From the NCBI GenBank assembly GCA_964568735.1, contig CAZMRF010000008.1:42261-101633 (forward strand): DNA of 59,373 nucleotides, in the 5' to 3' direction. This DNA is from an uncultured Acidobacteriota bacterium. Lineage in GTDB: Bacteria > Acidobacteriota > Polarisedimenticolia > JACPZX01. The notes beneath the pieces were generated by a model. The model searched no databases, had not been told where the DNA came from, and saw only the letters and a list, made by a program, of their open reading frames with translations. The position numbers were made by a program, and so were the translations under genes. This document shows, in pieces, positions 2,311 to 38,839 of the stretch. Numbering within the stretch: the first letter of the stretch is position 1; each line of letters starts with the position of its first letter.

Positions 2311-2404
2311 CGCCGGAAGCGCCAGGGCATCAGGATTGGTCGTGACGGGCTCCCGGGAGCCTCTCGGAGGCGTGACCCGGGCAGGCTCACAGAGGCTCTC
2401 TCCC

Positions 2405-3244
2405 ATGAGGCCCGACAGCACCCCTCGTCCAGCAGGCGCCCCCGATCGCTCGCCGCCCCCCGCGAGCGTCAGGTGTCCCGACTGCGGAGGAACCGGGTTT
2501 CGCGTGATCCGGGAGGGCGGCAGCGGCCGAAGCTATGCCGGCCCCTGCCCCTGCACGCGGGAAGAGAGGGTCCGGGCCCTGCTCCGGCGCGCCCGCATCC
2601 CGAGCCGCTACTCCGCCTGTGACTTCGGGTCCTTCTCCACCGACGCTCGCTTCGATCCGTCCATCGAGAGGGCCTGCATGGCAACGCGCGAGTTCGTCCA
2701 GAGCTACTCGGCGCGCCGGGCCCGCGAGGAGGCGGAGTTCGGCCTGCTGCTCCTCGGCCCCCCCGGGGTGGGGAAGACGCACCTCGCGGTGGCCGCGCTG
2801 CGCGAGCTGATCCTCGAGCACGGGGTCCAGGGGCTTTTCGCCGACTTCCGCGAGCTCATCAAGAGCCTGCAGGCCTCCTACGATCCGCTCGCGCAGGACT
2901 CCGAGATGGAGCTTCTCCGGCCCCTCGTCCAGGCCGAAGTCCTGGTCTTCGACGACCTGGGCGCGGCCCGGATGACCGAGTGGGTCCGCGACATGGTCGG
3001 CCACATCGTCAACAGCCGCTACAACGAACGGAAAGTCACCCTCATCACCAGCAACCTCAGCGACGCTCCCGCGGGCAAGGACTCGAACCACCCGGTTCTC
3101 ACCGAGCGGATCGGCCCGGCGGTTCGATCGAGGCTGCACGAGATGTGCGTGTCGGTCGAGATCACGGGGAAGGACTTTCGTGTCAATGAGGACTTCCGCC
3201 TCAACGTGAAGCGATCGACCCGCCGGCCTCGCCGGCGGAGCTGA
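2405..3244 (+). CDS. DnaC/IstB-family AAA+ ATPase with N-terminal C4 zinc ribbon (helicase-loader-like). The ORF can extend to 2336.
   Basis: CPDCGGTG...CPC zinc ribbon; Walker A LLLGPPGVGKTHLAVA; Walker B VLVFDDLG; sensor LITSNL. No transposase partner nearby. Confidence 0.7.
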   Translation: MRPDSTPRPAGAPDRSPPPASVRCPDCGGTGFRVIREGGSGRSYAGPCPCTREERVRALLRRARIPSRYSACDFGSFSTDARFDPSIERACMATREFVQSYSARRAREEAEFGLLLLGPPGVGKTHLAVAALRELILEHGVQGLFADFRELIKSLQASYDPLAQDSEMELLRPLVQAEVLVFDDLGAARMTEWVRDMVGHIVNSRYNERKVTLITSNLSDAPAGKDSNHPVLTERIGPAVRSRLHEMCVSVEITGKDFRVNEDFRLNVKRSTRRPRRRS

Positions 3245-15896: not shown

Positions 15897-16781
15897 ATGG
15901 CGAAGAAGATCCTGCTGGCCGATGACAGCATCACCATCCAGAAGGTCGTCGAGCTGACCTTCTCCGAAGGCGACTATGAGGTGTTCTGCGCGAGCGATGG
16001 CGCCCAGGCGATACGGAAGATCGAGGAGATCGTTCCCGACATCGCCCTCGTGGACGTCATGATGCCGCAGAGGAACGGGTACGACGTCTGCGCGCACGTC
16101 AAGAAGGATCCGAACCTCGCATGGATCCCCGTGCTCCTCCTCACCGGCACCTTCGAGCCGTACGATCCGAAGCGCGCCGGCGAGGTCGGAGCCGACGGGC
16201 ACATCATCAAGCCCTTCGAATCCAGGGCCCTCGTGGGCCAGGTCGAGGATCTCGTGTCGCGCCATCCGAGACCTGGAGCCAGGGGAGAGTCACGGGCACC
16301 CGTGATGCCGCCTCCGGCCGCCGCGCCCCAGGAAGCGAGGGAGAGACCGGCACCTGCGCCCCCGGCCGCTCTGGGCCCCGCGACCGTGCGGATCGACTCC
16401 CGCGCCTTCTTCAACCAGATGGAGCCGGCGGCGCCCCCGGCCGCGCCCACGCCGTCCCTGGGCCCGCTGGATCTCGGCTCAGGGGAGGGATCCATCGAGC
16501 CAACCCGGCCCATGCGCGCCACCGCGCCCCGTCCTCCCGCTCCCGCCCCCGTGGCAGCCACCGTCCCGAAGAGCGCGGGCCCCCGGGAGGAGGACATCGC
16601 GCGAGCCGCCCGGGAGAAGGTCGAGGAGCTGGCGAGGCCGATCATCGAGAAAGCGGCCGAGAAGATCATCCAGGAAATCGCCTGGGAGGTCATCCCCGAG
16701 CTTGCAGAGACGATCATCAAGCACAGGATCAAGGAGCTCGAGGAAGAGGCCGCCTCGGAGGGGGGAGCCCCGCTCCACTGA
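15897..16781 (+). CDS. Response regulator: receiver domain plus Pro/Ala-rich linker plus Glu-rich alpha-helical C-terminal segment (RomR-like architecture)
   Basis: REC: KILLADDSITIQKVVE...LVDVMMPQRNGYDV...HIIKPFE. An ~110-aa PAPAP-rich linker follows, then C-terminal EEDIARAAREKVEELARPIIEKAAEKIIQEIAWEVIPELAETIIKHRIKELEEEAASEG. Confidence 0.7.
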   Translation: MAKKILLADDSITIQKVVELTFSEGDYEVFCASDGAQAIRKIEEIVPDIALVDVMMPQRNGYDVCAHVKKDPNLAWIPVLLLTGTFEPYDPKRAGEVGADGHIIKPFESRALVGQVEDLVSRHPRPGARGESRAPVMPPPAAAPQEARERPAPAPPAALGPATVRIDSRAFFNQMEPAAPPAAPTPSLGPLDLGSGEGSIEPTRPMRATAPRPPAPAPVAATVPKSAGPREEDIARAAREKVEELARPIIEKAAEKIIQEIAWEVIPELAETIIKHRIKELEEEAASEGGAPLH

Positions 16782-27107: not shown

Positions 27108-28445
27108 ATGGCCGGACAGGGGGGAAGACCGCGGGTCGCCATCGTGGGGGCCCCGAACGTCGGAAAATCCACGCTTTTCAACCGCCTGGTCGGCCGGAGA
27201 AGGGCGCTCGTCGGCGACCACCCCGGCCTCACGCGGGACCTCATCGAATCACCGGCGACTCTCGGCGACTGCCCGGTCATCCTGGTCGACACGGGGGGAC
27301 TCATGCCCGCCGGCGCGGGAGCCCTCGCGGAGACGATCCGGGCCAACGTACTCGCGGCAGCCGCCGCATGCGACCTGATCCTCTTCGTCGTGGACGCGCG
27401 CCGCGGCGCAGCGGGATTAGAGGAAGACCTCGCCCAGAGGCTGCGGCGGACCGGTGTGCCCGTCATCCTGGTGGTGAACAAGGTCGATGCTCCTGATCTC
27501 GGGCCGCAGGCGGCGGCCGAGTTCACGTCGCTGGGGCTCGAACCTATCCTTCCCGTCTCCGCAGAGCACGCGCTGGGAATGGGGGACCTCCATCTCGAGG
27601 CCTCCAGACACCTGGAGGGCGCTCCCGCGGCCGCCGAGAGCCGCGAGATCGTGGAGGTGGCCATCGTCGGGCGCCCGAACGTCGGCAAGTCGTCTCTCCT
27701 CAACGCGCTCCTGGAATCGGAGCGTGCCCTCGTGAGCGAGCAGCCGGGGACGACGAGAGACTCCGTGGACGCCGAGCTGATCTGGAACGGGCGCATCTAT
27801 CGGCTGGTCGACACGGCAGGCATGCGGCGGCCCGGGAGAGTCGACAAGGGGCCCGAGGCGCTCTCGGTGGGCGCGGCCCGCCGGGCCCTGGGGAGCGCCG
27901 ACATCAGCCTCGTCATGCTCGACGCGCACGAAGGTCTCGTGGCGCAGGACATGAGCCTCCTCGGGCTCGTGGCCGGGGGCCGCGGAGCGCGTGTCAGGCC
28001 GGCCGTCGTCCTCGCGAACAAGATCGACACCCTCACCTCGCCCGGCGCCATCGACGCGCTCGTGCGCCAGATCCACGAGAGGCTCCGCTTCGCCCGATTC
28101 GTCCCGATCCTGCCGATCTCGGCCAAGCAGGGGACCCACCTGGACCGGATCCTCCCCGCCGTCGAGCAGGTCCGATCCGACACGGCCCGCCTCCTGCCGA
28201 CGCACGACCTCAACGACTGGCTCCGCCGGGCCACGAAGGCTCACCCCCTCCCGCTGCGGGGCGGAAAGCCCATGTCGATCGTCTTCGTGACGCAGTCCGG
28301 GACGCGCCCCCCGACCTTCACGTTCCTCACGAATCGCGGCGCGCACCCTCACTTCTCCTACGTGCGCTACCTCGAGAACTCCCTCAGGGAGCACTTCGCG
28401 ATGCACGCCACACCCATCGTGCTGCGATTCCGGTCCCGGAGCTAG
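27108..28445 (+). CDS. der: Ribosome-biogenesis GTPase Der (EngA), tandem GTPase domains
   Basis: Two G domains (GAPNVGKSTLFNRL...DTGG; GRPNVGKSSLLNAL...DTAG) plus a KH-like C-terminus. Confidence 0.92.
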   Translation: MAGQGGRPRVAIVGAPNVGKSTLFNRLVGRRRALVGDHPGLTRDLIESPATLGDCPVILVDTGGLMPAGAGALAETIRANVLAAAAACDLILFVVDARRGAAGLEEDLAQRLRRTGVPVILVVNKVDAPDLGPQAAAEFTSLGLEPILPVSAEHALGMGDLHLEASRHLEGAPAAAESREIVEVAIVGRPNVGKSSLLNALLESERALVSEQPGTTRDSVDAELIWNGRIYRLVDTAGMRRPGRVDKGPEALSVGAARRALGSADISLVMLDAHEGLVAQDMSLLGLVAGGRGARVRPAVVLANKIDTLTSPGAIDALVRQIHERLRFARFVPILPISAKQGTHLDRILPAVEQVRSDTARLLPTHDLNDWLRRATKAHPLPLRGGKPMSIVFVTQSGTRPPTFTFLTNRGAHPHFSYVRYLENSLREHFAMHATPIVLRFRSRS

Positions 28446-28469: not shown

Positions 28470-28499
28470 TTGACTCCTCCGGCGCCACCGTTATAGATT
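28470..28499 (+). promoter_or_regulatory. Candidate sigma-70 promoter (TTGACT-16/18-TATAGAT) upstream of the mglA-like gene
   Basis: TTGACT at 28470-28475; TATAGAT at 28492-28499. Confidence 0.35.
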
Positions 28500-28517: not shown

Positions 28518-29804
28518 ATGGTCCTATTCAACTACTCGACAAAAGAGCTCACCGCCAAAATCGTCTACTACGGGCCCGGTCTTTGCGGGAAGACGACGAA
28601 CCTCCAGTTCATCTTCGAGAATCTCCCGGCGAACATCCACAAAGGGAAGATGCTCTCCCTGGCGACGAAGACGGACCGGACTCTCTTCTTCGATTTCCTG
28701 CCCATCGATCTCGGGACGATCCGCGGCATGCGGACCCGGCTGCAGCTCTACACCGTGCCGGGCCAGGTCTTCTACAACACCACGCGGAAGCTCGTCCTGA
28801 AGGGCGCGGATGGCCTCGTCTTCGTCGCCGACTCGCAGAAGAAGATGCTCGACGCCAACAGCGAGTCCTTCGGCAACATGGAACAGAACCTGCGCGAGCA
28901 CGGGATGGAGCTCGAGACCATCCCCCATGTCCTCCAGTTCAACAAGCGCGACCTCAGGGACATCCTGAGCGTCGAAGAGCTCAACGCCGCGCTCAACAAG
29001 CACAACGTGCCGATCTACGAGGCCGTGGCCACGACGGGGATCGGGGTCCAGGACACGCTCAAGGCGGTCACGCGACTGGTGCTGAACTCCCTCCGCGAGA
29101 AGTACTCCGACGGCAAGAAGACCTCGACGCAGCGCGCCGCCGCGGCCGCATCTGCCGCGCGGCCGGCCCGGCAGGCTGCCTCGGCCCAGGTCGCGCCCCG
29201 CGAGCCGCTCGAAGTCGAGCCTGTCCTCGAGCTCGACGATGAGCCGGCGCTGGCACCTTCTCGCGAGCCCGAACCCGTGCTCGCTGTCGCCGCCGAGGAG
29301 GCCGTGGAGATCGAGGAGATCCAGGACGACATCGAGGAGGTTCCTGTGCTCGAGGTCGCCGAGGAGGAGGTCGGAGAGGCCGTGATCATCGAGGAGTCTC
29401 CCGCGATCAGCCTCGACGAATCTTCGCCCCTCAAGCTCGAGGAGCCCGAAACCGGCGCGCCGGGCCGCTTCGACGAGATCGAGATGACCCCCGAAGCCGA
29501 AGAAGAGCCGGCGCAGGGAGCGCCTCTGGGTGCCGCGCGCGCCCGTCAGCCCTTCGAGATGGACTCGAAGGCCTACGAGCTGGCGTCGCCGCTCGACGAG
29601 ACCGTCGCGGACGGCGCGACGGTGGCGATCGACGTGGCTGCCGCGGGCTCGAGGAGCTCACCCGGGAGGCCGCCGCTTCCGGGGAGAAGGGCCGCGCCGG
29701 GCAGCTCCGCCGCCCGCGAGGCCTCCTTCCCGCTCGAGATCGAGGTCCAGGGCCGTACCGTGCGACTCGAGGTGACCATCAGCGTTCGGGTCGATAAGAA
29801 TTGA
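28518..29804 (+). CDS. mglA: MglA-family Ras-like small GTPase with a ~230-aa acidic, low-complexity C-terminal extension
   Basis: N-terminal ~195 aa strongly similar to Myxococcus MglA: KIVYYGPGLCGKTTNLQFI (P-loop), TDRTLFFDF (intrinsic Arg finger), LYTVPGQVFY (catalytic Gln), QFNKRDL (G4), TLKAVTRLVL. This is followed by a tail rich in E/A/P/V (EEVPVLEVAEEEVGEAVIIEESP...). Confidence 0.85.
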   Translation: MVLFNYSTKELTAKIVYYGPGLCGKTTNLQFIFENLPANIHKGKMLSLATKTDRTLFFDFLPIDLGTIRGMRTRLQLYTVPGQVFYNTTRKLVLKGADGLVFVADSQKKMLDANSESFGNMEQNLREHGMELETIPHVLQFNKRDLRDILSVEELNAALNKHNVPIYEAVATTGIGVQDTLKAVTRLVLNSLREKYSDGKKTSTQRAAAAASAARPARQAASAQVAPREPLEVEPVLELDDEPALAPSREPEPVLAVAAEEAVEIEEIQDDIEEVPVLEVAEEEVGEAVIIEESPAISLDESSPLKLEEPETGAPGRFDEIEMTPEAEEEPAQGAPLGAARARQPFEMDSKAYELASPLDETVADGATVAIDVAAAGSRSSPGRPPLPGRRAAPGSSAAREASFPLEIEVQGRTVRLEVTISVRVDKN

Positions 29805-29826: not shown

Positions 29827-31059
29827 ATGAACCTGGACTGTCCTGGCTGCCGATCCCGACTCAAGCTGGATCCTTCGAAGCTCCCGCCCGGGGCCACCGC
29901 GGCGGTTTGCCCGAAGTGCCGGACGAAGATCCTCCTGCCCGGCACCGCCTCCACGGCGGAGATTTCGGTCCAGTGCAGCAGGTGCGCCTCTCGCCTCAAG
30001 GTCAAGGTCGCGAGGCTCAGGCAGACTCCCAGCAAGAGCAAGTGCCCCAAGTGCGGAAACGCCGTGGACCTCCCCGCGGCGCCTTCCGCGGGGGGCTCCA
30101 GAAGCTCCGCCACGCAGATCCCCGGAGCGTCCCCGCCGGCGAAGCCCCCCCAGCCCCCCGGCGTGGACCGCTCGGCGATGACGCGCCGGCTCGATGCGCG
30201 GGAGATGGGGATGCTCATGCAGGGCCAGGGAGCCCAGGCTCCTGACGCACTGCCGTCGGCCCCGATCTCCCTCGAGGATCCGCCCTCCGGCGCCTTCGAG
30301 AGCAGCTCCTCCGATCTCGGCCGCCTCATCGACGAGAAGGTCGACGCCCTGGGCGAGCTCGGCGAAGCGCCGCCCCCCCAGAGCCCCCGCTTCGGCGAGT
30401 CATCCGTGGAGGATCTGGCCATCGAGCTCTCCCGGTCGGGGGAGCCCATGCCTGATGCCTCCCCGGAGCATCACGAATCGGGCGCCCGCATCTCCGCCGG
30501 CCCGAGGGCCGTCGCCGAGGCCCCGGCGCCGCCTGGCGCGCCTCCCGCAGGCCGGCGAGCGGGATCCAGTTCAGGAAGCAGGGCCATCCCCACCTTCAGC
30601 GCCGTGGCTGGAGCCGCGCCGCGGGCAGCCTCGGGGCCGGGAGCCTTCCCCTTCGTTCTCGGCGGAATCATCGGAGGATCGCTCGTGGCCGCCGGGCTCA
30701 TCCTCGGGGGACGCTTCCTGCCCTCCGGGTTCGTGCCTCCCGTCCCCGAACCGATCTCCGTGCTGACACGCGAGAGCCTCGGGCTCCTGGGGCTGTTGAT
30801 CTTCCTGTCGGCGCTCTCCGGGCTCTTCGCCTCCTTCGCGCTGCCCCCCGCGGGCGAGGGGAAGGAGGGCAGGATCTCCATTTTCCGGTGCGCGGTGGCC
30901 GCCGGGCTCGTGGGGCTTCTCGCGGGCGTGGGCATTGCCCTCATCCGCGGCGGCGCCGACCTCACGTCGATGTCCCTGCCGGCAGCCACGTGGACGGCGG
31001 CGCTGGTCCTCTCGGGACTGCTGACCGGCCTCGTGGCGCGTGTCTTCTCGGGCCGCTAG
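29827..31059 (+). CDS. Double zinc-ribbon (MJ0042-type) protein with Pro/Ala-rich linker and C-terminal transmembrane helices
   Basis: CPGC-x17-CPKC and CSRC-x17-CPKC ribbons at the N-terminus. A Pro/Ala/Ser-rich region follows, then 3-4 hydrophobic helices (FPFVLGGIIGGSLVAAGLILGG..., LLGLLIFLSALSGLFASFAL..., LVGLLAGVGIALI...). Confidence 0.65.
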   Translation: MNLDCPGCRSRLKLDPSKLPPGATAAVCPKCRTKILLPGTASTAEISVQCSRCASRLKVKVARLRQTPSKSKCPKCGNAVDLPAAPSAGGSRSSATQIPGASPPAKPPQPPGVDRSAMTRRLDAREMGMLMQGQGAQAPDALPSAPISLEDPPSGAFESSSSDLGRLIDEKVDALGELGEAPPPQSPRFGESSVEDLAIELSRSGEPMPDASPEHHESGARISAGPRAVAEAPAPPGAPPAGRRAGSSSGSRAIPTFSAVAGAAPRAASGPGAFPFVLGGIIGGSLVAAGLILGGRFLPSGFVPPVPEPISVLTRESLGLLGLLIFLSALSGLFASFALPPAGEGKEGRISIFRCAVAAGLVGLLAGVGIALIRGGADLTSMSLPAATWTAALVLSGLLTGLVARVFSGR

Positions 31060-31193: not shown

Positions 31194-32270
31194 TTGAGAC
31201 GACGGTTCCTCCTGCTCGTGATGACCGGGACGATGGCGGCGAGTGCAGCTCTCGCGCAGCCCTCCAGCCCGTCCGGCCTGAACGTCTACCCCTCCTTCCA
31301 TCTCAAGTTCGAGAGGGGGGGCGGGACCTATCTTCTCGCCAGCACGATCATCGTGAACGTCAGCGACAAGACCGTGCGCGACCTGACGCTCCAGCAGACC
31401 TACCCCCACGACCTGGTGCCCACGGCCGCGCCGGCGGGCATCCACGAGTACTTCGCACGGCCCGAGGGCTTCGTGGAATCGGTCGAGGGTCAGGTCTACA
31501 CGATGACGACCCCATTGCTCCGCAGGGGCGAGATGACCTCCGCTCTGGCCCTGCTGAAATACGATGGACGTCCCTCCACCGCCGTGATCCCTCCGGCGCA
31601 GATCAAGTACGCCGCCGCGGGCGAGAGCTTCACCGAGAGCGGGCCCGCGCTCACGCTCGATCTCAAGAAGTACACGAAGTACAGCGGGACGCTCGCCGAG
31701 TTCATCAAGCGCTACGCCGGGATTCTCCTCGAGTTCCCCGAGTCGGAGGGACCGGACTGGGGCTTCTCGGGCTTCGCATCCAGCGTCAGGGCGAAGACGC
31801 CCATCGGCATGGTGGAGATCGAGGGCGATGCGGCGGAAGGGCGCTTCAGCCTGATCCGGGGGGAGCCGGGCGACACGAGGCTGCTCCTCGTGGCCTGGAA
31901 GGCCGAGCCGAATGCGGGCTTGGCCGAGAGCAGGGCCCAGGTGCTCGACGTGGTCCGGCGCCAGATCATGCCGTCAGCGGCCTTCGAGCTCGACATGGAA
32001 GGCGCCACCGTCGAGAAGGGCCGTCTCGGCCGGTACGAGGCCTGGATCATCGCCTCCCGCTGGACCGACAAGGTCGTGGACCGGCTGGGTGAGGGCCCCG
32101 CGCGGTGGTACCTCTACGACGACACGACCAGGAAGCGACGGTACCTCGTGCTGATCGCCACGCAGGGGCGGGGAGCCGGCCCGGGCAAGGCGGACACTCC
32201 CAACCCCGAGAAGGAAGCAGCCCTGATGAAGGAGCTCGAGCAGATCGCGAGCAGCTTCCGGGCGCTCTAG
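31194..32270 (+). CDS. Secreted hypothetical protein (signal peptide; TTG start)
   Basis: Signal peptide MRRRFLLLVMTGTMAASAALA/QP; ~358 aa with no recognisable motif. Confidence 0.5.
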   Translation: MRRRFLLLVMTGTMAASAALAQPSSPSGLNVYPSFHLKFERGGGTYLLASTIIVNVSDKTVRDLTLQQTYPHDLVPTAAPAGIHEYFARPEGFVESVEGQVYTMTTPLLRRGEMTSALALLKYDGRPSTAVIPPAQIKYAAAGESFTESGPALTLDLKKYTKYSGTLAEFIKRYAGILLEFPESEGPDWGFSGFASSVRAKTPIGMVEIEGDAAEGRFSLIRGEPGDTRLLLVAWKAEPNAGLAESRAQVLDVVRRQIMPSAAFELDMEGATVEKGRLGRYEAWIIASRWTDKVVDRLGEGPARWYLYDDTTRKRRYLVLIATQGRGAGPGKADTPNPEKEAALMKELEQIASSFRAL

Positions 32271-38002: not shown

Positions 38003-38839
38003 ATGGCCAACCCCTTCAAGGACTACATCGTCAAGCTGAGAGCCGGTGACCTGGTTTTCAAGGCCGGCGACCCGGGGACGGAGATGTACATCGTCCAGTC
38101 GGGAACGGTCGAAGTCTTCTCGGAAGGCCCGCGGGGCTCCACCGTCCTCGCCGTGATGGAGAAGGGCGACTTCTTCGGGGAGATGGCGCTCCTCGACGGC
38201 GCGCCTCACATGGCCTCCGCCCGGGCCGTCGAGGATGTCGAGCTCATCGAGATCAACAGCACTCTCTTCGACCGGATGATCAAGGCGAACACCGAGATCG
38301 CCGTGCGAATGCTCAGGAAGCTCTCCATCCGGCTGCGTGAGGCCAACAAGGCTCTCGACGGAGCGCTCGCAGCCGGCGACCGCGAGGCCCCCCCCCTCCC
38401 CGAAGCACCCGCCGCCGCCATCCCGGCGGACGCCGCTCGCACGAAGGCGGAGCCGGCGTCCCCCTCGCATGGGGCTCTCAGGGCACCGGACATGGCCTCC
38501 CTCGAGGGCTGCCATGCCTTCTTCCACGCGGAGGAAGGACAGGAGACATTTCCCATCCGGACCGACAAGGCCGTCCTGGGCCGGTTCGATCCCGTGACCG
38601 GGCTCAAGCCGGAGGTCGATCTCTCCAGCGCCGACATCAACCGTTCGGTCTCACGCCAGCACGCCCGGCTCACGCAGGAGGGCGGGGTCTACTACCTCTG
38701 CGAGGAGCCCGGCGCCCTCAACGGCACGTTCATCAACGGCAGGAAGCTCATCACGGGGAAGCCCACCCGCATCCGAGACGGCGACGCCGTCACGCTCGGA
38801 ATGGTCAAGATGACCTTCCGGGAAGCGGGGAAGAGTTGA
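38003..38839 (+). CDS. Cyclic-nucleotide-binding domain protein with C-terminal FHA domain
   Basis: cNMP-binding fold (GDLVFKAGDPGTEMYIVQSGTVEVF...GDFFGEMALLDGAPHMASARAV...). After an Ala/Pro linker comes an FHA domain (GRFDPVTGLKPEVDLSSADINRSVSRQHARLTQEGGVYYLCEEPGALNGTFINGRKL...DGDAVTLG). Confidence 0.75.
   Translation: MANPFKDYIVKLRAGDLVFKAGDPGTEMYIVQSGTVEVFSEGPRGSTVLAVMEKGDFFGEMALLDGAPHMASARAVEDVELIEINSTLFDRMIKANTEIAVRMLRKLSIRLREANKALDGALAAGDREAPPLPEAPAAAIPADAARTKAEPASPSHGALRAPDMASLEGCHAFFHAEEGQETFPIRTDKAVLGRFDPVTGLKPEVDLSSADINRSVSRQHARLTQEGGVYYLCEEPGALNGTFINGRKLITGKPTRIRDGDAVTLGMVKMTFREAGKS

Follow-up and report, generated by a model that had tools for sequence, protein, structure and literature searches.

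What kind of protein is an MglA-type GTPase whose G domain is followed by more than two hundred further residues and whose gene has no mglB beside it? MglA is the best-understood Ras-like switch of the prokaryotes, and in current models it consists of a single domain and is under the control of MglB and RomR/RomX. The gene that raises the question lies at positions 28518..29804 of the forward strand, in a stretch of 59,373 nucleotides (nt) from an uncultured Acidobacteriota bacterium (contig CAZMRF010000008.1); the whole stretch is called here the window, and the gene product the window protein. A preliminary description of this DNA had presented the protein as an MglA orthologue with a fused acidic disordered tail of about 230 amino acids (aa), which might act as a built-in regulator.

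Our main finding is that the window protein belongs to a large sister lineage of MglA, with the same catalytic core, without a linked GTPase-activating protein (GAP) and with a conserved tail architecture. This widespread long-form branch, with its defined three-part architecture, has not previously been described. Literature searches returned no published description of a long-form MglA, and the survey of prokaryotic small GTPases by Wuichet and Sogaard-Andersen (2014, PMC4316618) kept only GTPases of 150-240 aa, so that long MglAs could not appear in it. Public labels for them are inconsistent, ranging from 'hypothetical protein', 'ADP-ribosylation factor-like protein' ('ARF-like') and 'MglA' to 'signal recognition particle receptor subunit beta'. 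Pfam and NCBIfam give the window protein weak generic Ras or small_GTP matches only, and therefore no curated model covers it.

The G domain and its lineage

The gene is a single intact open reading frame (ORF) on the forward strand, as had been described, with an ATG start and 428 codons followed by a stop. Residues 196-428 form the tail, 233 aa rich in Ala, Glu, Pro and Val. The features of the gene are listed below, the four G-domain motifs being read from the sequence; structural features refer to a model of the window protein made with AlphaFold2 (AF2) on 94 homologues, with its predicted local distance difference test score (pLDDT).

28518..29804, + strand: long-form MglA-type GTPase gene (ORF; coding signature throughout; full-length homologues at 44-87% identity)
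28518..29102, + strand: MglA-type G domain, aa 1-195 (MglA in the PDB, E=1.5e-75; Foldseek template modelling (TM) score 0.88; invariant catalytic residues)
28572-28595, + strand: P-loop GPGLCGKT, aa 19-26
28671-28697, + strand: switch I and Arg finger TDRTLFFDF, aa 52-60
28755-28766, + strand: VPGQ, aa 80-83
28941-28952, + strand: NKRD, aa 142-145
29103..29156, + strand: alpha5 extension and short second helix, aa 196-213 (AF2 model, DSSP: H177-200 and H206-213)
29157..29702, + strand: acidic disordered linker, aa 214-395 (pLDDT<50 over aa 210-382; net charge -28)
29217-29234, + strand: EPVLEL, linker short motif at aa 234
29271-29288, + strand: EPVLAV, linker short motif at aa 252
29340-29357, + strand: VPVLEV, linker short motif at aa 275
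29703..29801, + strand: conserved C-terminal module, aa 396-428 (extreme C-terminus in ~110/120 homologues)

A tail of this kind might be an artefact, produced by a missed stop, a frameshift or the fusion of MglA to a downstream ORF, and the first two of these origins had been named at the outset as a possible flaw. We exclude them, and the probability that we would leave to any artefact is negligible, because the coding signature persists throughout the tail and because homologues share both the layout and the C-terminus in frame. The G+C content at third codon positions (GC3) in the frame of the ORF is 0.80-0.93 for every 90-nt interval across the tail, and stops interrupt both alternative frames of that region. 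A homologue search returned more than 8000 matches. Every one of the top 120 is a long protein (247-612 aa, with a median of 422); they come from independent NCBI, ENA, JGI and Logan assemblies, with full-length matches at the identities given above. More than 150 homologues have the same layout as the window protein, cultured Geothrix carry a 295-aa version among their RefSeq proteins, and the C-terminal module is conserved in frame, with an invariant Pro. The sole hint of an artefact in the data set concerns another locus and says nothing of the window gene: at L045 (6001-6972), an mglB-linked canonical MglA of the Thermoanaerobaculaceae reaches 323 aa through an Arg/Pro-rich extension devoid of a hairpin, which is probably read-through from an assembly frameshift and contrasts with the genuine long forms.

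The G domain is close to that of the Group 1 MglAs of Myxococcus xanthus and Thermus thermophilus in fold and in sequence. In a phmmer search of the PDB, residues 3-194 align to the M. xanthus MglA chains 5ymx, 6h17 and 6hjh at E ~1.5e-75, and the Thermus MglA (3t12) matches at E=5e-65; the closest solved proteins other than MglA are Rab35 and Rab27, at E>=8.6e-06 (Rab35 8.6e-06). BLASTP identity is 60% with the MglA of Cystobacter and 62% with an acidobacterial canonical MglA, in good agreement with the 60-65% to Myxococcus MglA initially proposed for the first ~195 residues. The AF2 model of the domain is confident and superposes on MglA at the TM score listed, versus ~0.7 on Rab and Ras (Foldseek), and the domain is strongly conserved, with a mean top-residue frequency of 0.84 among 94 aligned proteins of the long-form group B1 defined below.

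The catalytic machinery is likewise that of MglA. The Arg finger and the catalytic Gln that had been recognised in TDRTLFFDF and VPGQ are both present, as R54 and Q83, the equivalents of R53 and Q82 of M. xanthus, and the columns equivalent to M. xanthus T26, R53, T54 and Q82 show no variation among 39 B1, 14 B2 (the second long-form group) and 30 canonical sequences. The G1 and G4 motifs read GPGLCGKT and NKRD; in G3, LYTVPGQ, Thr replaces Asp (TxPGQ versus DxxGQ), and the absence of this conserved Asp is a stated peculiarity of MglA (PMC4316618). The N-terminal beta0 strand is also shared, and the alpha5 pocket is largely retained. On these sequence features, membership of the MglA family with Group 1-type catalytic machinery is well supported and, since every catalytic feature of MglA is retained, the window protein is expected to work as a switch that binds and hydrolyses GTP. 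As for its conformation, the AF2 model of the G domain (28518-29102; mbb2343433034) has a structural-alignment identity of 62% with GTP-state MglA and of 56-57% with GDP-state MglA; this better sequence register with the GTP-state structures suggests that the beta2 strand is predicted in the 'flipped' active register.

To place the protein among its relatives, we used a scan of genome contigs that matched at least 600 stretches, of which 80 loci, labelled L001 on, were kept and translated; each of these loci is from a different assembly. Among the matches listed, the closest relatives are Acidobacteriota, with Ca. Polarisedimenticolia at 77-79% identity over the G domain, followed by Thermoanaerobaculia, Holophagae (including Geothrix), Vicinamibacteria and others. 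The 80 translated loci fall into three kinds of protein. Canonical MglAs, 192-198 aa long and starting MTFINYASKEIN... or MSFINYSSREIN..., occur in Myxococcota and Acidobacteriota, in the latter among Thermoanaerobaculia, Holophagales, Pyrinomonadaceae and Blastocatellia. Long form B1, to which the window protein belongs, starts MVLFNY[ST]TKELT... and measures 293-606 aa. Long form B2 starts MVFFNYSTMQMA..., measures 262-505 aa and ends in a related terminal hairpin, ..LEKLLLRLNIALNAKE.

A neighbour-joining (NJ) tree of the G domains, a distance tree calculated without bootstrap and without SofG, places the canonical proteins in one clade and B1 together with B2 in another; the window protein lies in B1, outside the canonical clade. 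Relative to canonical MglA, B1 and B2 have in common the derived residues I4F, N12T/A, C13A, H75Q, D86N, S88T and I92V, located in beta0/beta1 and in switch II/alpha2.

The linkage to mglB sets the two clades apart in the same way. A hidden Markov model (HMM) of MglB was built from seven bona fide MglBs taken from canonical loci; as a control, it located mglB in 32 loci, of which 31 have it directly upstream of mglA and one has it downstream, and all 30 canonical members of the tree have an adjacent mglB. When the window was translated in six frames, none of its ORFs of 60 aa or more gave a match at E<=0.01, no mglB was found within 6 kb on either side in 41 B1/B2 loci, and no Roadblock/LC7 domain appeared in Pfam scans of 27 plausible window genes (valS, comEC, glnA and glnE, assigned by synteny with related loci, stood outside these scans). 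The absence of mglB, first reported for the immediate surroundings, thus extends over the whole window. Coupling to mglB has been defined as a location within four genes (Wuichet 2014, PMC4316618), and by this measure the window protein is uncoupled.

From these comparisons of sequence, long MglA appears as an old paralogue lineage, found mainly in Acidobacteriota and distinct from the canonical mglB-coupled MglA. The window protein differs from canonical MglA in its size (428 aa, with a conserved 233-aa extension, versus a single domain of ~195 aa), in its separate clade, in the fact that long forms are never mglB-linked, and in its disordered linker and hairpin. The separate NJ clade, the shared derived residues and the missing mglB link therefore mean that it is an MglA-type GTPase, as had been recognised, without being 'the' MglA orthologue. 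The refuting condition that had been set at the outset, a canonical mglB-mglA operon elsewhere and a generic paralogue here, is borne out in its first half at the level of the phylum and class; its second half does not fit a large, coherent family with a defined architecture.

SofG of M. xanthus was the known paralogue to which the window protein had been likened. An orphan paralogue of MglA, it docks on the bactofilin BacP and works with this landmark and not with MglB (PMC4316618, PMC4085708). Compared by description only, and not by sequence, the two have in common that they are MglA-family paralogues uncoupled from mglB, with a retained Arg finger and extra sequence beyond the G domain. 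SofG carries its extension at the N-terminus and has diverged much further from MglA. The window protein lacks an N-terminal extension, as its start, MVLFNYSTKELT, aligns to residue 1 of MglA, and is 60% identical to MglA, so that 'SofG-like' holds in a loose sense, for an mglB-orphan paralogue with an extension, and no further.

Two observations on individual loci can be added. The B2 loci include L024, L027, L029, L030, L036, L037, L041, L049, L053, L059, L061, L064 and L067, with proteins of 341-505 aa; those examined have a DUF2520 protein upstream and, in several, NrdR downstream. At L056 (6001-7329), a Zixibacteria MglA-like protein of 442 aa has its MglB homologue downstream rather than upstream, and ends in a polybasic and hydrophobic segment, KKKKKGFFLFRLFGKK; this terminus looks like a membrane-targeting element, and would be another solution to the anchoring of MglA.

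Anatomy of the extension

The tail begins with a short helix, continues as a disordered linker that varies across the family, and ends in a conserved amphipathic beta-hairpin. Over the helical part (aa 196-213) the pLDDT drops from 75 to 51, and Y196 is invariant. The linker varies in length from 64 to 383 aa across the family and is poorly conserved, with a mean top-residue frequency of 0.28 in the 94 aligned B1 proteins. The linkers of B1 are acidic without exception (-0.14 per residue, and in no case positive), those of B2 near-neutral (-0.01). Short motifs recur in the linkers: patterns of the type acid-Pro-hydrophobic-acid-hydrophobic show a 9-14x enrichment over shuffles of matched composition, and [DE]P[IV]DL[DE] was observed 35 times for 0.1 expected.

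The hairpin itself spans aa 399-424, SFPLEIEVQGRTVRLEVTISVRV. In the same alignment the last 33 residues have a top-residue frequency of 0.43 at full occupancy; P405 in strand 1 is invariant, and the turn residue G412 is found in at least 90% of the sequences. Both strands alternate strictly between hydrophobic and polar residues, a property common to the long forms of B1, B2, Nitrospirota and Krumholzibacteriia. The window protein thus fits the architecture proposed for B1 and B2, an MglA-type G domain, a disordered linker and a hairpin with a strand-1 Pro. The acidic disordered tail of the preliminary description is therefore genuine as an extension, and acidic and disordered in its linker; its last ~30 residues are something else, a confidently predicted and conserved beta-hairpin.

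In the full-length AF2 model the pLDDT of the hairpin is ~90, and we considered on this ground that it might be docked on its own G domain. This idea was dropped, as the C-terminal 60 aa alone give 89-95: the confidence is intrinsic to the segment and says nothing on docking. The model predicts in this way that the terminal hairpin is a self-contained element.

An exhaustive profile search with the terminal module, over 1.84 billion representatives, retrieved 96 proteins. The matches sampled are long MglAs or C-terminal fragments of them, or giant VCBS/Calx-beta adhesins with 5-17 weak repeats; the presence of the module in other protein contexts was consequently rejected and, as far as the profile can tell, it is specific to long-MglA GTPases, apart from the weak matches to adhesin repeats. 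Five of these adhesins (P0130-P0132, P0136 and P0139), 3,000-6,500 aa long, have 7-16 weak repeats each that match the profile. The matched pattern is 'LxxGxxxxIxVPVxV...', and in this sequence pattern the module resembles the last strands of an immunoglobulin-like sandwich.

Possible roles of the extension

The reading that we favour, tentatively, since it is somewhat less likely to hold than to fail, is that of a competent GTPase switch that a flexible linker tethers to an element for docking or assembly at its terminus, with the adjacent membrane protein as local partner. The hairpin would be the attachment or assembly element. Because its 11-residue strands carry one fully hydrophobic face, it presumably cannot stay exposed, and should either add onto the beta-sheet of a partner (beta-augmentation) or associate with itself. 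As a flexible, charged tether, the linker would give the anchored G domain access to its targets, and the short motifs of the linker may recruit factors. In the subclade of the window, the likeliest local partner would be the membrane protein encoded immediately downstream (29827..31059), which would place the switch at the membrane. The GTPase might be activated by a Roadblock-type GAP encoded elsewhere, which is proposed in view of the retained switch I/II and alpha5 pocket, or by some other factor.

The layout of GTPase, variable disordered linker and conserved terminal element recalls FtsZ, in which a conserved GTPase domain is followed by a disordered linker that varies between species and by a short conserved docking element at the terminus. 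In FtsZ this element is a short helix/strand peptide that binds FtsA and ZipA; the terminus of long MglA is a beta-hairpin of ~26 aa, and the fold of FtsZ is tubulin-like as opposed to Ras-like.

Several points weigh against the tethered switch. The analogy with FtsZ is limited to the layout. The docking or self-association of the hairpin is itself deduced from a predicted structure, and the weak repeat matches to VCBS/Calx-beta proteins indicate that the pattern of the module is partly generic for the end strands of beta-sandwiches. Finally, no partner gene is conserved family-wide, the neighbours elsewhere being gltX, nrdR, cyclophilin, DUF2520 or an FHA-RDD protein; the link to the membrane protein is for this reason limited to the subclade of the window, and could be mere synteny.

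It had been suggested initially that the acidic tail, fused in cis, is a built-in regulator comparable to MglB. In its explicit form, acidic segments of the tail would fold onto their own G domain, for example at the basic allosteric pocket formed by alpha5 and the beta2-beta3 loop, and act as a built-in exchange factor or autoinhibitor in place of MglB; the acidic C-terminal switch of Ran would be a eukaryotic analogue of such a cis-acting tail. The idea has a structural basis in MglB, whose C-terminal (Ct) helix, DDDIDNLF, binds a pocket of the alpha5 residues K181 and K185 and the beta2-beta3 loop residues L64 and I67 (Baranwal 2019, PMC6785124). According to the same study, the basic alpha5 residues are conserved only with a partner that has a D/E-rich helix, and the Glu-rich end of RomR can substitute. 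Long MglA would resemble these systems in having a D/E-rich flexible segment near a G domain that retains the basic alpha5 residues: L64, I67 and K181 are mostly kept, position 185 is K or R in 88% of 158 B1 and in all B2, and the B1 linker is strongly acidic. Moreover, a few lineages, such as Vicinamibacteria, have a good match to the Ct-helix (TDDLLDSLG, z 3.8-4.9).

It would differ from MglB and RomR in acting in cis and not in trans, and neither motif similarity nor covariation was found. When a position-specific scoring matrix (PSSM) made from 16 MglB C-termini was scanned on 166 tails with 200 shuffles each, it was barely enriched, at a mean z of 0.54 with 11% reaching p<=0.05, and the tail of the window protein scored below its own shuffles (z -1.0); an MglB-like Ct-helix motif in the tail was accordingly rejected. 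The acidity of the tail does not covary with the basicity of the alpha5 pocket (Spearman +0.16, the wrong sign), and B2 keeps a basic pocket despite its near-neutral linkers. The whole acidic region has a pLDDT below 50, and the proposal leaves unexplained the most conserved element of the tail, the terminal hairpin, which is not acidic. We therefore consider regulation by the protein's own tail unlikely; with the PSSM, the covariation and the B2 linkers all negative, the retained pocket is better explained by ancestry or by an acidic helix acting in trans.

The same anatomy could be read as that of a self-assembling hub, in which the hairpin oligomerises and the Pro/Glu-rich linker drives the formation of a condensate or matrix, in a PopZ-like layout, so that the protein would be a landmark with GTP-gated clients. 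An acidic, Pro-rich disordered region joined to a terminal element with an exposed hydrophobic face, repeated and multivalent short motifs in the linker, and the lack of a partner gene conserved across the family are all consistent with it. However, oligomerisation of the hairpin is putative, aromatic 'sticker' residues are scarce (1.6-3%), and the wide variation of the linker in length and in charge, down to neutrality in B2, is more in keeping with a tether than with a tuned driver of condensates. This makes a hub improbable in our eyes, slightly more so than regulation in cis; the rest of the probability we leave to explanations other than those discussed here.

The tethered switch, if its hairpin is indeed a module for localisation or assembly, would show how a bacterial small GTPase can be positioned without a lipid anchor, and the hairpin, the linker motifs and the adjacent membrane protein would provide a defined handle for finding effectors. 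The proposal can be tested directly, since cultured Geothrix carries a long MglA. A broader and distinctly more doubtful proposal is that long MglAs constitute an MglB-independent class of Ras-like switches, anchored by the hairpin, by way of the long charged tether, either to a partner (membrane or landmark) or to the protein itself, and serving in many Acidobacteriota a housekeeping spatial process (envelope, division or polarity) and not motility reversals. Were it true, this would be the first prokaryotic small-GTPase family with an intrinsic localisation module, with a logic comparable to that of the lipid-anchored hypervariable tails of eukaryotic Ras and Rab.

Promoter and neighbouring genes

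The features around the long mglA gene are the following.

27108..28445, + strand: der (EngA) (Pfam: two MMR_HSR1 and one KH_dom-like; context only)
28470..28499, + strand: sigma-70-like promoter TTGACT-N18-TAGATT (consensus scan: 1 found versus 0.1 expected)
29827..31059, + strand: zinc-ribbon membrane protein (two MJ0042-type zinc ribbons, disordered linker and four transmembrane-like segments at aa 272-404)
~31194-32270, + strand: conserved secreted protein of ~358 aa, with signal peptide MRRRFLLLVMTGTMAASAALA, two genes downstream of long mglA

The spacer between der and long mglA is 72 nt long, and the promoter that had been placed directly after der is indeed found there, as the sigma-70-like element listed. 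An equivalent, TTGAC(T/C)-N17-TAxAxT, is present in seven related loci (L001-L004, L006, L007 and L009), the rest of the spacer being divergent. An upstream der is restricted to the window and L001-L009 and is not seen in the other long-form lineages.

The gene at 29827..31059 starts 22 nt past the mglA stop with no terminator between, and is probably co-transcribed with long mglA; we infer that its product belongs to the long-MglA system. Its zinc ribbons are recognised by Pfam (Zn_ribbon_4, 3.8e-11) and by TIGR02098. A polytopic membrane protein occupies this position, -4 to +22 nt after long mglA, in the window and in L001-L004, L006 and L007. One kind combines two MJ0042-type zinc ribbons with a disordered linker and 3-4 transmembrane segments, and in L003 and L006 its gene has a 4-nt overlap with the mglA stop; the other, an Rce1-like CPBP membrane protease, takes its place in L002, L004 and L007.

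A precedent for such a partner exists in the gliding protein GltJ of M. xanthus, which binds MglA-GTP through its disordered linker and recruits MglB through its zinc ribbon (PMC11135422). The 29827-31059 protein resembles the cytoplasmic part of GltJ in its N-terminal zinc ribbon(s), disordered linker and transmembrane segments, and the fact that MglA-GTP can bind the linker of a zinc-ribbon membrane protein counts in favour of the downstream protein as a partner. The differences are that Pfam detected no GYF domain or TonB-like periplasmic part in the 29827-31059 protein, and that in sister lineages the zinc-ribbon protein is replaced by the Rce1-like protease. Against the PDB, the best match of the zinc ribbon was an unnamed 49-aa protein (E=0.056).

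The secreted protein is present in the four der-linked loci compared (L001-L004), at 27-57% identity, and has no Pfam or NCBIfam match; the ORF list extends its reading frame to 30888, where it overlaps the preceding gene. The 27 window genes scanned with Pfam have functions of the housekeeping core: DnaK, sigma factors, LptD-like, thiolase, M50 peptidase, HU, Der, ScpAB, S1, MiaB-like and ParAB; no bactofilin was seen among them. Beyond the window, we looked for a neighbour conserved across the family by all-vs-all clustering of flanking ORFs, Pfam and a downstream scan, and rejected this possibility, as the neighbours were lineage-specific only, those outside the subclade of the window being housekeeping genes with no relation to one another.

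A few other genes can be mentioned. The protein encoded at 38003-38839 (+), which combines a domain binding cyclic nucleotide monophosphate (cNMP) with FHA, is conserved in a syntenic block that includes L001-L004, and an FHA and RDD membrane protein is encoded divergently upstream of a Geothrix long mglA (L028, 4877-5902, -); the recurrence of FHA proteins near long mglA is possibly coincidental. The response regulator at 15897-16781 (+) consists of an N-terminal receiver, a Pro/Ala-rich linker and a Glu-rich helical C-terminus, in which one Trp stands close to a Pro (..IAWEVIPELAE..). The same layout has been described for RomR, a polarity partner of MglA whose Glu-rich C-terminal region has an invariant Trp and Pro (PMC3441718); the PDB and NCBIfam give generic receiver matches only. 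An IstB/DnaC-like AAA ATPase (2336-3244, +; Pfam IstB_IS21, 1.4e-16) is encoded amid housekeeping genes.

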